A stretch of 64,000 nucleotides of DNA from Escherichia coli (GTDB taxonomy: Bacteria > Pseudomonadota > Gammaproteobacteria > Enterobacterales > Enterobacteriaceae). The notes below the pieces were generated by a model. That model was not told the origin of the DNA. It did no database searches and saw nothing but the letters and a program-made list of their open reading frames with translations. The position numbers were made by a program, and so were the translations under genes. Positions 1,839 to 7,683 of this stretch are shown piece after piece. Every line of letters starts with the position of its first letter. The stretch's first letter is position 1. Location of the stretch: the NCBI GenBank assembly GCA_025336725.1, contig GCA_025336725.1_3647.1. One strand, written 5' to 3'.

Positions 1839-3920
1839 TTAAAAAGGTGTCTCATCGTCTTCAAAACCGGGAACAGGGTCAGAGGACGGATCATCATACG
1901 GAAGGTTTTCTTGTGTGTCAACAGGGTTAACAGCAGGGGTTATAACCTTATCAGCCACAACCTTGCCCACAGGTGTTTCTACAACTGCATGCTCCTGATC
2001 CTCAAACATAGCCTGAGGTCTCCAAACAACCTCCCCACCTTCCCCATCTGTAAACATCTGCATTTCTTTGTCCCAGTACCAGTTGCTGGCATCATGGAAC
2101 TTGCCTGTGTGGGGATCCATAACTAGAGTGTCTGCAATACCTAAGGTTTTTGCTGGGCGGTTTTTAAGACCTACCAGTCGGACACGTCCACGGGAACGAT
2201 CCACCATCTCCTCTGCCTCTACCCCGACAACCACCCAGCTAAGTTGCTCCAATCCGGCACTACCGCGAAGGTTCTCTTTTCGTACAGGGTACCAGAAAGG
2301 TAACGGATTTCCATCCTTATCCTTCGGAGGTACAATCTCTGTGCGCTTCAGGTGAGCAATCACCAAGATAAACACATTAAACTGCTTACAGAACGCGGCT
2401 AGTTGAGTCATAGCCATGTCAAGTTCTTTGCGCTCATCCTTAACATTAAGCCCTGAAATCACCATAGACAAGTGATCCAGCACAATGTAACGGCAGTGAT
2501 ACAGGCACACCATTTGTTTAAGCTTAGTGATCAGCTCATCTACAGGGATGGAGCCGAAATGCTTGAACACTTTGATTTTTCCGGCCTTGGCCCAAGATTG
2601 ATGAATCTCAGCGTGCTCCTGATCGGTCAGGAACTGACTGGGGTCTTCAACAAACTCTTTAACATCAAACCCCAGCTGGTTAGCGTACAGAGAGTTGATT
2701 GCTTCCTCAGGATCCTCTTCAAGGTGAATCAGGCACAGGCGATCATCCTCTTCATAATCATCAGCTTTAGGGCATGTTGGATCCATCAAGTATCTTGCAA
2801 TGCAATGTTCCAGCTTCTTGGCTACAGTTGTTTTACCACCGCCAGACGGGCCTGTCAGCATCATCAAGGTGCCTTTGTGGAGTCCTTTCAGCATCTTCTG
2901 CAGTTTAGGGAACTCTGCACTAATATCCACGCCATTGGAAGTCTTCTTACGAAGAGATTCAATGGAGAAGTCTTCTAAATCAGATACAGCATCAGGCACA
3001 TATTTGACTGGGTGACGGAACATGTTGACAATATCTTCCAGCTTTTTAGCCTTCAGCATGTCACGAATATCTTTTACACCATCAGGGTCGTTTACCTCAC
3101 CTGGGTATTCCACGTGGTAAACGTTGTCAGCCATCAAAAATGCTGCGATATTATGCGTAGCTTCAACACCTTTGATAACGTGTTTTTGCTTCTCTACCTC
3201 GTTAGCTGCATCGTTGTCCATTGCAAGGACTACTGTTCCGTAGCTACGGATAAATTTCTCATTGTTCGCAAAAGTGTCTACGGCGTTTGCACACCCGCAG
3301 TTAATTCCGACAAAAGGCAGGCATGGTTTTCCTGCCAGATCACCGCCGTTAATAACTGCATCAATCCCATCCTGGACTTCTTTAGCCCACTGCTTCACCT
3401 TCGCCGGGGCTTTAGCATTGGTGAGAATTCCTTTTACTTGTACCTGATATGCAGCCTGCCACGCTGCAATAACATCTCCTTCCCCCTCACAAACGTTAAT
3501 CTGCTTGCGGTTGTTGGAGGATGCACACAGCTTTTGACCAAACATCTGGGAGTTGGCCTTTACTATGCCGACAACCGAGAAATGGCCCCTTTGCTCTTTA
3601 GGGATTGTCCAGTCACGCTTTTTAAAGCCAGATAGATTACCGTAGCGGTCATAATACGGAAAGTAGGTGGCAGTAACAGTTACGCCATCCTCTTGGGATA
3701 GCGATGATCGTACACCAAAATATTGTGCAGCCATCAGTCCAATATTTTGTTGTGGAACAGGGACAATTTTAGTATTTTCTAAAACAGTCTCTACAGTTTC
3801 AACTTCTTTTTCATCACGATAGTCTCGTTTCACACTTCCCCCACTTTTATACTTAGTTGCTTTCGGGTTTGGCTCACCGAAACGGTTGTATGCAGATGCC
3901 ATGAATTTACTGCCCATCAA
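1839..3920 (-). CDS. bifunctional DNA primase/helicase (T7 gp4-like)
   Basis: 693 aa; TOPRIM-like segment (..VVLAMDNDAANE..) followed by RecA-type helicase core with Walker A LTGPSGGGKTT. Confidence 0.8.
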   Translation of the reverse strand: MMGSKFMASAYNRFGEPNPKATKYKSGGSVKRDYRDEKEVETVETVLENTKIVPVPQQNIGLMAAQYFGVRSSLSQEDGVTVTATYFPYYDRYGNLSGFKKRDWTIPKEQRGHFSVVGIVKANSQMFGQKLCASSNNRKQINVCEGEGDVIAAWQAAYQVQVKGILTNAKAPAKVKQWAKEVQDGIDAVINGGDLAGKPCLPFVGINCGCANAVDTFANNEKFIRSYGTVVLAMDNDAANEVEKQKHVIKGVEATHNIAAFLMADNVYHVEYPGEVNDPDGVKDIRDMLKAKKLEDIVNMFRHPVKYVPDAVSDLEDFSIESLRKKTSNGVDISAEFPKLQKMLKGLHKGTLMMLTGPSGGGKTTVAKKLEHCIARYLMDPTCPKADDYEEDDRLCLIHLEEDPEEAINSLYANQLGFDVKEFVEDPSQFLTDQEHAEIHQSWAKAGKIKVFKHFGSIPVDELITKLKQMVCLYHCRYIVLDHLSMVISGLNVKDERKELDMAMTQLAAFCKQFNVFILVIAHLKRTEIVPPKDKDGNPLPFWYPVRKENLRGSAGLEQLSWVVVGVEAEEMVDRSRGRVRLVGLKNRPAKTLGIADTLVMDPHTGKFHDASNWYWDKEMQMFTDGEGGEVVWRPQAMFEDQEHAVVETPVGKVVADKVITPAVNPVDTQENLPYDDPSSDPVPGFEDDETPF

Positions 3921-4671
3921 TTCTTCTCCTTACTGCAGGCTCGTTTGCTAAGAATACAGCTCTTGCCCAGCCACGTGGTGTAAGGCTTCGAATCATCTTC
4001 GTCCTTGCACTCTTTCCACCTAGCTTAGCGTGTTGCATGGAATACCCGCTAACCGCGTCAACTATTTGCGGGACAGGTTTTGTGACCAGGATTATAAATC
4101 CATTACCTATCCAGCCGCAAGTTATTTTTGGATAGGCATCACGTGGAGCTATAAATTCAGGAAACCAAGGGTTTACATCATCCTCCGGTAAATACCCGCC
4201 ATAGTCAGAAGGATGAAAACGGTAATCAGGTTTGCGCCACAGTGTGGACATAACACCAACAGGATTCTCTACATGCCACGGGCAATCGTAAATCTCTCCC
4301 AGCTCTTCCGCAACCCGAGCATCCTTTACAGCATTAATTTGGATCATGGGGTCCTTAGCCAGCTTTTTCTTAAAATGTGCAGCACCTGATACCGCTAAAT
4401 GCGTGCACGGAGGAAATGCAAGAATAAAGTCTGGAGCTGGGTACATGCAAAAAGTTTCCTGAGGGAACCATGGGTCAATCCAATAATCCACATAGTGAAT
4501 GTTGGGATGATCAGTTATCACCTCTGCATAACTGCCGTGATCAGCACCTTCTGCATTAAAGCACAGGCACAGGTACCCAGCTTTTGCCCAGTCAATGACT
4601 GCACCACCAGACCCGTCAAATAGACTCCACACAACACCTTTGTGGTAGTGTTCTTTGTAGATAAATTTCAA
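3907..4671 (-). CDS. SAM-dependent methyltransferase-like protein with DNA cytosine-5 MTase-like motifs
   Basis: FDGSGG (motif I-like), FPPCTHLAVSG (PC motif IV-like), HVENPVG (ENV motif VI-like); start moved to TTG at 4671 (AGGAGA RBS 7 nt upstream) because ORF-track GTG start 4701 lies inside a hairpin. Confidence 0.35.
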   Translation of the reverse strand: MKFIYKEHYHKGVVWSLFDGSGGAVIDWAKAGYLCLCFNAEGADHGSYAEVITDHPNIHYVDYWIDPWFPQETFCMYPAPDFILAFPPCTHLAVSGAAHFKKKLAKDPMIQINAVKDARVAEELGEIYDCPWHVENPVGVMSTLWRKPDYRFHPSDYGGYLPEDDVNPWFPEFIAPRDAYPKITCGWIGNGFIILVTKPVPQIVDAVSGYSMQHAKLGGKSARTKMIRSLTPRGWARAVFLANEPAVRRRIDGQ

Positions 4672-4682
4672 TTTGCTGTCTC

Positions 4683-5204
4683 CTAATGCAAAAAGCCCCA
4701 CCCTTTCGGGCAGGGCCTAGTGTTAAACCCGATACCTATTGTATACTCGGTGGATACCAATGTCAAATCTAAATTTAAAATTTCTTGCATCTCATAGTAT
4801 GCGTCCAGGGTGAGATACATTTCTCCATCCTTTTCTACATACTTGTCCAAGTGCTTGAGGCATTTCGGATAACTATCGAGTGCAGCTTTCAGACACTCAA
4901 ATTCTGTGCTGTTGATGAATCCTTCCATCTTAGCTACCCGTTCTGGAGTAACGATAGCGCTGTAGTGAGATTTAGCTTCCTGAATGCAATGGGTCCAAGC
5001 ATCAACTTTCTCTTCGAAAAGTCCGAAGAACTTCTTTTTAGTGAGCTTCAGATTCTTTAAGTGCTTAAGCACTCGGTTGCCGATCACAGACACATCACGA
5101 AACTTAAGGATCACTTTGTCGATATCCTCGCGACCTATTTTCACAAAGCAAGCCTCACACATTTCAGGAGCTGCGTAACCTACTTTCCACATAAAATCTG
5201 ACAT
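4683..5204 (-). CDS. hypothetical protein with N-terminal Cys-rich motif
   Basis: 173 aa ORF; N-terminus WKVGYAAPEMCEAC resembles motif in plus-strand ORF 22155..22355. Confidence 0.5.
   Translation of the reverse strand: MSDFMWKVGYAAPEMCEACFVKIGREDIDKVILKFRDVSVIGNRVLKHLKNLKLTKKKFFGLFEEKVDAWTHCIQEAKSHYSAIVTPERVAKMEGFINSTEFECLKAALDSYPKCLKHLDKYVEKDGEMYLTLDAYYEMQEILNLDLTLVSTEYTIGIGFNTRPCPKGWGFLH
4690..4716 (-). terminator. terminator-like GC hairpin plus T-run overlapping 3' end of upstream ORF
   Basis: Minus strand GCCCTGCCC-GAAA-GGGTGGGGC followed by TTTTT; overlaps last codons of ORF 4683..5204, so function uncertain. Confidence 0.3.
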
Positions 5205-5215
5205 ACTCCTTCTCC

Positions 5216-5611
5216 TTATTCCTGAAAAGCTATGATATCATATGAACTTGCAGATGATCCTGGTGAAGAATGACTCCAGTCTAGGTCATCAGAGTAGTCA
5301 GCGTACTGTGCACCACTACGTAGTTTGTATTTTACCCACTTACCTGGTGCAGGGTTTTCACCACCTTCCCACACTTCCCAGCCTTCTGGCAGGCCGCCCT
5401 GAGCGTAGTCATCCACCTCACTAATAATCTTAGGGTTTGGCACCAATATTCCTGCTGGTTCTTCCTTCTTAGCAAGTGTCCATACAGCGTAGGTGTCTGA
5501 GCAGGCGCATGATAGCAAAGTATATCCACTATTCAGAACTTCTGCAAGCTCTTTTTCAGCATCTTCCAATTTGGTTAAGTGGTATTGGATAATCTTTACA
5601 CCTGTAATCAT
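5216..5611 (-). CDS. hypothetical protein
   Basis: 131 aa ORF packed in same-strand operon. Confidence 0.5.
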   Translation of the reverse strand: MITGVKIIQYHLTKLEDAEKELAEVLNSGYTLLSCACSDTYAVWTLAKKEEPAGILVPNPKIISEVDDYAQGGLPEGWEVWEGGENPAPGKWVKYKLRSGAQYADYSDDLDWSHSSPGSSASSYDIIAFQE

Positions 5612-5913
5612 CAGAAACCTCCTGTCTCTTCAGCAAATGCAGCCGCTGTTGTTGCTGCATCCAGATAAGACTCTAGTTCACGTGCTGCCCGTTTGTAAAT
5701 CGAGTGGCGAATATCGTTCGGCAGTTGGTAAAAATCCACCTCTTCTCCGTTGTGGTAAACATGCACATCAGTAATCTGTCTAAATCCATAATAATCAACA
5801 TCAGAATCACGGCACTCTGGATCTGGCAACTGGACAACTGCCTGAGCCTCTACAGTGAGCATATTGTCAAGTTCGAAATCGATTTCAAAAGTGTATGGTT
5901 TATAACGCTTCAT
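5611..5913 (-). CDS. hypothetical small acidic protein
   Basis: 100 aa ORF, start/stop abutting neighbour. Confidence 0.5.
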   Translation of the reverse strand: MKRYKPYTFEIDFELDNMLTVEAQAVVQLPDPECRDSDVDYYGFRQITDVHVYHNGEEVDFYQLPNDIRHSIYKRAARELESYLDAATTAAAFAEETGGF

Positions 5914-5974
5914 CGTTTGGTGTTCTCCTTAGTTTTTGTGGGGAGGAGTGCCTCCCCTTTATACTCACATTTTA

Positions 5975-6316
5975 CTACTCAAGGTCTTCAGAGTCAAGCT
6001 CAAAAAGAATCAAACTGTGCATGCCTGCAGAGAGATCAACACACCCTGCAACAATAAGGGTTTGATAGTAAGGTTCAGCACCCTCAATATCTTCGTTAAA
6101 ATCCACAACAAGGTAGTCACCTTTGTTAAAGGTGTATTTGTCCGATGTAAACGCAAAACCTGCCCAGTCCCCTACTGCAGGATCTTTATCAGTCACCTTT
6201 GTTAGTAGTAGATCTTTTTCACGAGATCTTTTAGTAAAATCGTGAATCACAACATCCTTCTCTTCAGGAGTCGGATTGCCACACACGTAGTTAACGATAT
6301 TTCTCCACAAACTCAT
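5975..6316 (-). CDS. hypothetical protein
   Basis: 113 aa ORF, 4-nt overlap with downstream helicase gene. Confidence 0.5.
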   Translation of the reverse strand: MSLWRNIVNYVCGNPTPEEKDVVIHDFTKRSREKDLLLTKVTDKDPAVGDWAGFAFTSDKYTFNKGDYLVVDFNEDIEGAEPYYQTLIVAGCVDLSAGMHSLILFELDSEDLE

Positions 6317-7683
6317 ACGTCCCCCTTTTCTGCTCTAGTTTCAAAATCTTTCCTGACTTTCTCGTCTAAGCCAGGGAAAGTTGTATTATAAAACTCTACG
6401 ACTCTCGGGTCAACAATAATATCCACCTCTCTTAATGGACGCAATAAGTTTATTCCTTGTATCGTCTTAACCCGACTCAAGGCAACATACGTCATTCCGG
6501 GAGAGAAAGCTCCGTTCTTTCCGAGGTCTAGGTTGTAACAATCTAACGTAAGTCCTTGACTTTTATGCGATGTTACTGCGTACCCAGATTTCAAAGGAAG
6601 TTGCTCATAAGACCCGATCACAACCCTCTCTATGAACTTCTCCATCTTCCTTTCGGCAATATTGTACCTCTGGGAAGGTTTGTACTCGTTATTCTCCCAC
6701 AATCTCGGCTCAATTTCAACCTGTGTTCCGTCTTCTAGCTCAACTACTACGGATTTGGTCTTGAATTTTACCACTGTGGCACGTGTCCCGTTAACATAAT
6801 ACGGAACTTTGTGAGTAGGGTCAACATCGTTTGAGGTTATCATAACCTTCATCCCTATCTTCAGCCTCATTTCCTGCTCCACAGGTAGTGTGGAAGGGAA
6901 CTTACCTTTCATTTTACCAATGTAGGTCTTCTCTGGGGCCTTGATGGCATCATAGAAACGTCTGTTCACCTCCTCTGCTTGCTTATTGGTGGCACAGATG
7001 GTCAAGGCATCTGTTGGGACACCACCATGATAGCAACGAGTGTTAAGCTCTGCTACAACCTCTTTTATGCGACGACCTTCACGAACACAGTTCAACATTG
7101 TGGCGAAGCGAACAGATTCCTGACGGAACTGGTCTACCAAGGCTATGTTGTGAAGATTAAGATCCTCCCAAGATTCTGTATAGCAACACAGATCTGTGTG
7201 GTAGAAGTTGAAGTAGGCTTCTTTCTCCATAGAAGAGACAACTGGAGGTGCTTGGTAGAAATCTCCAAACAATAACACCTGAATGCCTCCGAAAGGTTTG
7301 TCATTTTTCCGAAGAAAGCGGAGTTTTCTATCCATCTCTATGAACTTGTCAGCACGGATCATAGAGATTTCATCGATAATCAGGATGGTAAATGCCTTGC
7401 TTTTCAGAGGCTTTGCTGTTTTTGCCCTTATTGCTGTCCAGTCTGACTCCATGCTCACACCTGCGGCAAGATCGAAAGTTCGGTGCGCTGTTGCTCCATT
7501 AACGTTTAAAGCGGCTACCCCTGTCGGGGCAACCGTTATGCAAGAGTCTCCATACATGGACTGGATCATGTTGATAAGATATGTCTTCCCGGTTCCACCA
7601 GGTCCACTTACGAAGACATTCTCACCGCTCATGATTGCAACAAGGGCAGCATCTGTGCCTACATCGTACTGCCCTTTTTCCAT
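6313..7683 (-). CDS. SF1B DNA helicase (PIF1/RecD/Dda-like)
   Basis: 456 aa; Walker A VSGPGGTGKTYL, Walker B IIDEISM, motif LLFGDFYQAPPV typical of PIF1/Dda-like helicases. Confidence 0.8.
   Translation of the reverse strand: MEKGQYDVGTDAALVAIMSGENVFVSGPGGTGKTYLINMIQSMYGDSCITVAPTGVAALNVNGATAHRTFDLAAGVSMESDWTAIRAKTAKPLKSKAFTILIIDEISMIRADKFIEMDRKLRFLRKNDKPFGGIQVLLFGDFYQAPPVVSSMEKEAYFNFYHTDLCCYTESWEDLNLHNIALVDQFRQESVRFATMLNCVREGRRIKEVVAELNTRCYHGGVPTDALTICATNKQAEEVNRRFYDAIKAPEKTYIGKMKGKFPSTLPVEQEMRLKIGMKVMITSNDVDPTHKVPYYVNGTRATVVKFKTKSVVVELEDGTQVEIEPRLWENNEYKPSQRYNIAERKMEKFIERVVIGSYEQLPLKSGYAVTSHKSQGLTLDCYNLDLGKNGAFSPGMTYVALSRVKTIQGINLLRPLREVDIIVDPRVVEFYNTTFPGLDEKVRKDFETRAEKGDV

Follow-up and report, generated by a model that had tools for sequence, protein, structure and literature searches.

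The gene at positions 3907–4671 of a 64,000-nucleotide stretch of DNA filed under Escherichia coli (assembly GCA_025336725.1, contig GCA_025336725.1_3647.1; the whole stretch is referred to here as the window) very probably encodes an orphan S-adenosylmethionine (SAM)-dependent DNA (cytosine-5) methyltransferase of the compact "Dcm-like" phage family phrog_757. The window itself is Vequintavirus DNA, that is, DNA of an rV5-like E. coli myophage, and the gene is already known in that it belongs to an annotated phage family with a characterized member. A sequence-only reading of the window had proposed a small C5-methyltransferase-like protein of about 254 amino acids at 3907–4671, and this proposal was borne out: an exact open reading frame (ORF) occupies these positions, and assignment to phrog_757, the register of an hhalign profile alignment, public annotation and a homologue that makes 5-methylcytosine (5mC) all agree with it. 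No strand had been given; the ORF is encoded on the minus strand. What is regarded here as established comprises the fold, the motifs, membership of the family and the production of 5mC by the homologue, which is 54% identical. The coding sequence is as follows.

3907 to 4671, minus strand: coding sequence of the 254-amino acid Dcm-like DNA C5-cytosine methyltransferase (ORF list and sequence, phrog_757, KarlJaspers bas06_0055 and MCT7477374.1).

Function was approached through the Dcm of phage K42, a phage 95.4% identical to KarlJaspers/Bas06 (10.1101/2023.08.16.553469). KarlJaspers (MZ501090) carries a 711-bp gene, bas06_0055, annotated as a "Dcm-like C5 cytosine methyltransferase", and the window protein aligned with its product at 54% identity over amino acids 10–243 (BLASTP, E = 2e-85). 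The K42 dcm gene increased 5mC in multicopy single-stranded DNA (msDNA), as judged by mass spectrometry coupled to liquid chromatography (LC-MS), and triggered retron Ec86; a C82A/E128A/K175A/K176A variant, the quadruple mutant being the only one assayed, gave neither 5mC nor Ec86 triggering (10.1101/2023.08.16.553469). The four substituted residues map to C89, E135, K182 and I183 of the window protein. The K42/KarlJaspers Dcm and the window protein thus share the phrog_757 family, the motif layout and the catalytic Cys, Glu and first Lys, and both genes lie near helicase genes. They differ in length (236 amino acids in KarlJaspers, 254 in the window) and in phage type, a Drexlerviridae siphovirus as against a Vequintavirus myovirus; relative to the KarlJaspers Dcm, proteins of the vequintavirus clade also have QIVD inserted ahead of the GYS segment and extend further at the C terminus. 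The rV5-like gene is now linked in this way to the sole characterized member of its family, a trigger of retron Ec86.

Membership of the family is supported by the following records. In PHROGs, amino acids 2–251 matched phrog_757 ("DNA methyltransferase") with an E value of 2.3e-84. By tblastn, relatives were found in 1505 phage records, spread over Vequintavirinae, Drexlerviridae, Dhillonvirus, Klebsiella Webervirus-type phages and others, and many of these records carry the label "DNA cytosine methyltransferase" or "Dcm-like C5 cytosine methyltransferase". Among 5.8 billion proteins, a word-indexed search returned 4172 relatives, and among 1.84 billion cluster representatives, searched with a profile, 2053 clusters matched at E ≤ 0.001. 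Nearly all of these are 210–260 amino acids long, so the small size is a family hallmark and not a truncation. An identical protein is held by NCBI as MCT7477374.1, "DNA cytosine methyltransferase [Escherichia coli]", and its 90% cluster includes the protein of the BASEL vequintavirus JeffSchatz, annotated "Dcm-like C5 cytosine methyltransferase".

The motifs of the protein were located by alignment to canonical C5 methyltransferases and to the K42 enzyme, with the following result.

4603 to 4620, minus strand: motif I, FDGSGG, amino acids 18–23, the SAM-binding loop, aligning with FaGIGG of canonical C5 methyltransferases.
4405 to 4416, minus strand: motif IV, FPPC, amino acids 86–89, with the predicted nucleophile Cys89, which is invariant and equivalent to C82 of K42 Dcm.
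4258 to 4269, minus strand: motif VI, ENPV, amino acids 135–138, with Glu135, aligning with canonical ENV and equivalent to E128 of K42 Dcm.
4117 to 4134, minus strand: YPKITC, amino acids 180–185, in which K182 is equivalent to K175 of K42 Dcm, predicted to bind substrate, and I183 replaces K176.
3970 to 3993, minus strand: motif IX equivalent, IRSLTPRG, amino acids 227–234, placed by hhalign alignment to canonical RrLTPrEc.

The sequence-only reading had placed motifs I (FDGSGG), IV (FPPC) and VI in the correct order, and here it was right; the literal ENV that it gave for motif VI is not present, the protein reading ENPV through insertion of a Pro. Conservation was scored on 50 diverse family members with 31–55% identity to the query. 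C89, E135 and Y180 were invariant among them, and F86, P87, N136, P137, K182, T184, R228, S229, T231, P232 and G234 were at least 90% conserved. For motif I, which aligned to the FaGIGG of E. coli Dcm and seven phage C5 methyltransferases, G20, S21 and G22 were at least 90% conserved among close homologues, and the sixth residue, the third Gly, was not conserved. The residue that follows FPPC, usually Gln, is Thr in the window protein. The motif pattern is far beyond chance. Comparison with the S127 BCL3 orthologue, at 33 synonymous and 5 non-synonymous codon differences, indicates in addition purifying selection on the gene within the genus.

The link to canonical C5 methyltransferases was examined both by profile and by structure. 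In hhalign, the 50-member family profile aligned to a canonical profile of eight sequences (E. coli Dcm and seven phage C5 methyltransferases) with an E value of 8e-5 and a probability of 61%, and motifs I, IV, VI and IX fell in register. Against E. coli Dcm alone the alignment was in register but weak (E = 0.064, probability <1%). The AlphaFold model had a predicted local distance difference test score (pLDDT) of 87.1 and a predicted template modelling score (pTM) of 0.87; it matched phage "DNA-cytosine methylase" models in BFVD with E values down to 1e-26, and its closest structural relatives were DNMT3 catalytic domains. On this predicted structure the protein has the C5-methyltransferase three-dimensional fold, and the model settles a question that sequence had left thin.

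Compared with M.HhaI, M.HaeIII and E. coli Dcm (PF00145), the window protein has motifs I, IV, VI and IX in the same order and register and presumably shares their covalent-catalysis chemistry. It is about 70–220 residues shorter than canonical bacterial type II or orphan C5 methyltransferases, reads ENPV at motif VI, and has about 35–40 amino acids where their target-recognition domain sits; unlike the genes of canonical type II systems, its gene is not accompanied by a partner restriction enzyme. The catalytic domains of DNMT3A and DNMT3B likewise have a very small target-recognition region, and DNMT3B also gave the best PDB hits by sequence profile, but their identity to the window protein is just 15–16%. 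DNMT3 moreover forms a DNMT3L-assisted tetramer, acts at CpG sites and carries regulatory domains, whereas the window protein gives no sign of oligomerization or CpG specificity.

Several points weigh against the assignment, and they concern detection by standard profiles, the motif set, the allele itself and the target site. Searches of the query against Pfam (E values up to 10) and NCBIfam returned no match, the PF00145 threshold not being reached. A PF00145 match at E < 0.01 was obtained for just 2 of the 50 diverse family members; P0054, P0071 and P0072 (54–56% identical) pass the PF00145 gathering score, at 24.7–28.5 bits against a cut-off of 22, over motifs I–IV only. Sequence-only searches of the PDB with the protein and two family profiles matched M.HaeIII and DNMT3B only at non-significant E values of 0.09–1, and the unrelated Rossmann protein KtrA scored 0.04 in the same searches. 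For motif VIII, the 254-amino acid protein contains no QxRxR string, and nothing in it aligned to PQnRER in hhalign; the conserved R177 and K182 may substitute for it. No clear GNxV of motif X follows IRSLTPRG in the protein. An A-N pair at amino acids 242–243 lies in the single C-terminal helix, and N243 is at least 90% conserved among close homologues. Nor does the protein contain a target-recognition domain of about 80 amino acids or more between motifs VIII and IX, the spacing from YPKITC...GNGF to IRSLTPRG being only about 35–40 residues. These departures from the textbook (ENPV, no motif VIII, no recognizable motif X and a short recognition region) are family-wide and not specific to this gene. 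The family is an example of C5 methyltransferases that are missed by the standard Pfam and NCBIfam profiles and recovered by structure prediction.

With respect to the allele, K176 of the K42 enzyme is replaced by Ile183, and amino acids 195–196 (window 4084–4089) are Leu-Val in place of the Pro-Ala found in both vequintavirus relatives that were compared. Pro195 is at least 90% conserved family-wide in two alignments, so that Leu195 could leave this allele impaired. It was considered on these grounds, and on the grounds that the exact sequence of the gene is recorded on a single contig, that the Leu195-Val196 pair together with Ile for the second Lys of PKK has weakened or inactivated the window allele, which would then be a decaying or non-catalytic remnant. 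This is quite unlikely: the reading frame is intact, every catalytic residue is kept, and there is the purifying selection across the genus described above. Position 183, moreover, is Ile or Leu throughout the vequintavirus clade, and the loop that holds residue 195 is not part of the catalytic motifs. The Leu195-Val196 change may be neutral; it is the sole feature that could make this copy less active.

For an active C5 methyltransferase, a mechanism can be proposed by analogy with M.HhaI and DNMT3. SAM would be bound at motif I (FDGSGG) and the target cytosine flipped out of the duplex; Cys89 of FPPC would attack C6 as Glu135 of ENPV activates the ring, and the methyl group would pass from SAM to C5 of the cytosine. 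Given that motifs VIII and IX are separated by a recognition region of only about 35–40 residues and that the closest structural match is to DNMT3, DNA would be recognized by short loops and not by a separate domain. Given also the gene's place among the replication genes and its tight coupling to the primase/helicase gene, the enzyme is presumably produced while phage DNA replicates, and would mark newly made DNA. Of this scheme, we infer the activity of the window allele, its target sequence, the timing of its expression and its biological benefit.

The substrate and the transferred group were also weighed. Modification of DNA, one of the functions that had been suggested from the sequence, is supported by the profile alignment, the family assignment, public annotation and the 5mC-making homologue. 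A nucleotide-modifying enzyme, suggested as another possibility, found no support, because both the fold and the activity of the homologue indicate a DNA substrate. The phage enzymes that modify dCMP have a thymidylate-synthase fold, unlike that of the C5 methyltransferases, and a dCMP- or nucleotide-modifying role was rejected on fold. The small size and the missing target-recognition domain do leave the substrate formally open, and one can envisage an enzyme whose substrate is RNA, in the manner of the Dnmt2-like tRNA m5C methyltransferases, or free nucleotides; as the homologue methylates DNA, we hold this to be highly improbable.

Equally remote is the transfer of a group other than methyl, for example carboxymethyl from carboxy-S-adenosylmethionine (Cx-SAM), giving 5-carboxymethylcytosine as a handle for hypermodification. 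The precedent is CmoX of Synechococcus phage S-B43 (PDB 8yf3), which uses Cx-SAM through Arg350 and is encoded beside CmoA and CmoY (PMC12783734). In E. coli, Cx-SAM is available from the host's CmoA (PMC12783734), and the equivalent of HhaI Asn304, which governs cofactor choice, could not be placed in the window protein, motif X being unclear. Against such a transfer, the 54%-identical K42 enzyme gives 5mC by LC-MS, and a tblastn search with E. coli CmoA found no homologue in the 64-kb window, which spans roughly half of the genome (about 136 kb in all). The window gene therefore differs from that of CmoX both in having no CmoA neighbour and in having a close homologue that makes 5mC.

For the DNA (cytosine-5) methyltransferase, the target site may be CCWGG by analogy with the K42 homologue. 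Ec86 no longer defended against K42 when either C of the msDNA CCTGG site was mutated (10.1101/2023.08.16.553469). The CCWGG specificity of the K42 enzyme was itself assumed from E. coli Dcm, with support from this msDNA mutagenesis alone (10.1101/2023.08.16.553469). Site counts in the window did not bear on the matter: CCWGG occurs at 94 sites, with a Markov observed-to-expected ratio of 0.64 that equals the ratio for CCGG and is uninformative on specificity, and the counts of CCWGG and other palindromes in the window revealed neither site-specific avoidance nor enrichment.

It is possible, and we suggest it tentatively, that the enzyme is an active C5 methyltransferase whose specificity or substrate is unlike that of E. 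coli Dcm, such as a shorter or different motif, the outer C of CCWGG, or hairpin or single-stranded DNA; such a difference would be compatible with the assignment as a DNA (cytosine-5) methyltransferase. The region of about 35–40 amino acids between motifs VIII and IX has no detectable similarity to the Dcm target-recognition region, and our literature search found neither a vequintavirus methylome nor a mapped specificity for phrog_757-type enzymes. E. coli MG1655 is dcm-positive. In the K42 study, 5mC in msDNA was low in MG1655 with an empty vector and was increased by the phage enzyme (10.1101/2023.08.16.553469). If the host was dcm-positive in those experiments, the low 5mC with the empty vector means that the phage enzyme acts in a way that host Dcm does not. 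Expression level, in place of specificity, could account for the same difference, and the loss of Ec86 defence in the CCTGG mutants agrees with CCWGG recognition. A broader form of the idea is that the compact phage "Dcm-like" enzymes, having almost no target-recognition domain, are not mere copies of host Dcm: their specificity may be looser or different, or they may be able to methylate DNA in hairpin or single-stranded form. This would explain why 5mC in msDNA rose with the phage enzyme and not from the host background; we consider it rather doubtful. If it held, the role of the enzyme in large restriction-sensitive phages such as rV5 would lie in replication or packaging intermediates, or in evasion of an unidentified defence, and not in classical anti-restriction.

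An anti-restriction role for the vequintavirus methyltransferase is plausible by analogy, since CCWGG methylation would protect the DNA from EcoRII-type restriction. In the BASEL study, Vequintavirinae were "exceptionally susceptible" to the restriction-modification systems assayed there, so broad protection is not evident; in the same study, carriage of methyltransferase genes by Drexlerviridae did not relate in any simple way to restriction resistance. The enzyme may also carry a cost. In the K42 study the 711-bp dcm gene was disrupted in all four of the four K42 escapers from retron Ec86, and its expression was toxic only in cells carrying Ec86 (10.1101/2023.08.16.553469). By analogy the vequintavirus enzyme is a possible trigger of Ec86, a cost known for the siphovirus homologue only: the Ec86-sensitive phages reported were Drexlerviridae, Siphoviridae and Demerecviridae, with no Vequintavirinae among them (10.1101/2023.08.16.553469). 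The rV5-like phages are widely used in biocontrol of E. coli O157, and their replication module includes a conserved gene for a cytosine methyltransferase; the practical value of this is small.

Turning to the signals for expression, the gene starts with TTG at 4671, ends with TAA at 3909–3907 and encodes a product of 254 amino acids and 28.7 kDa. An alternative in-frame GTG at 4701, situated within a hairpin, would give 264 amino acids (10 more residues), and both the TTG and the GTG starts are used among public annotations of the methyltransferase. The following elements lie upstream.

4679 to 4683, minus strand: ribosome-binding site GGAGA, 7 nt 5' of the methyltransferase TTG, read from the sequence.
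4693 to 4718, minus strand: hairpin with an 11-bp stem and a GAAA loop, then a T-run, directly 5' of the methyltransferase gene, found by sequence scan.
4738 to 4766, minus strand: sigma-70-like promoter match TTGACA-17-TACAAT (11 of 12 positions), 5' of the hairpin, found by consensus scan only.

The hairpin at 4693–4718 might be terminator-like, ending upstream transcripts, or a 5' structure that acts as a stabilizer. It is the same in S127 BCL3 and JES2013, phages too closely related for this to be informative. The putative promoter (4766–4738) is followed by the hairpin (4718–4693) within 20 nt, an odd order in which a promoter precedes a terminator. In the same interval, the upstream ORF at 4683–5204 (minus strand) has a 1-nt deletion at about window position 4730 relative to S127 BCL3 and JES2013 (AAACCC-GATACC as against AAACCCGGATACC). 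The deletion shifts the 3' end of this ORF, giving 173 amino acids in place of 160, and the shifted frame reads through the hairpin as far as the methyltransferase ribosome-binding site. Either the variant is genuine or the sequence is in error here.

The genomic setting was that of a replication module, in agreement with the sequence-only reading, which had put the methyltransferase next to the replication genes. Bases 3000–6000 match 119 phage records at about 94–95% nucleotide identity, for example S127 BCL3, vB_EcoM-ECP32 and JES2013. The minus-strand gene run comprises rIIA, rIIB, a Dda-like helicase (6313–7683, upstream of the methyltransferase), four small ORFs of unknown function, the methyltransferase, a primase/helicase and DNA polymerase, of which the N-terminus runs from 1780 to the window start, the gene being cut by the window edge. 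The immediate downstream neighbour is the following.

1839 to 3917, minus strand: primase/helicase gene, downstream of the methyltransferase (phrog_239, E = 1.6e-158).

The ATG of this gene at 3917 produces an 11-nt overlap with the 3' end of the methyltransferase gene, and its own ribosome-binding site, AAGGAG, lies within the methyltransferase gene. The annotation of S127 BCL3 places the boundaries of these genes identically.

In many close relatives, among them S127 BCL3, JES2013 and O157 typing phages, a second methyltransferase of about 441–448 amino acids, annotated as adenine, BamHI-like or EcoPI Mod-like, is encoded between ORFs of 100 and 113 amino acids; this second methyltransferase is absent from the entire 64-kb window. 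In S127 BCL3 its cassette has on either side a copy of an imperfect direct repeat, about 90 bp long, that comprises a ribosome-binding site, a start codon, a hairpin and the end of the preceding gene (L001 6915–7004 and 8316–8406). The repeat was seen by direct alignment, an automated repeat search of the S127 BCL3 locus having missed it. The window contains one hybrid copy at 5880–6020, with the junction near 5913/5914. As far as the aligned flanks go, this arrangement is consistent with loss or gain of the cassette by recombination between them. The short gap between the 100- and 113-amino acid ORFs contains, at 5940–5957 (plus strand), a GC-rich hairpin, GGGGAGGAGTGCCTCCCC, with a T-run after it; this hairpin belongs to the repeated flank of the cassette in relatives. 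The 100-amino acid ORF (5611–5913, minus strand) matched phrog_4240, of unknown function, at E = 9e-32, and more weakly phrog_1573, a 138-position family labelled "DNA methyltransferase", at E = 4.5e-6. The ORF is far too small for a methyltransferase, so the phrog_1573 label may derive from its neighbourhood, or the protein may be an accessory of the cassette.

Finally, 16 records named "Campylobacter phage A1xx" (e.g. MG065644 and MG065690) are about 94% identical to window positions 3000–6000. They are unannotated, with Campylobacter jejuni given as the host, and are probably mislabelled or contaminant genomes.

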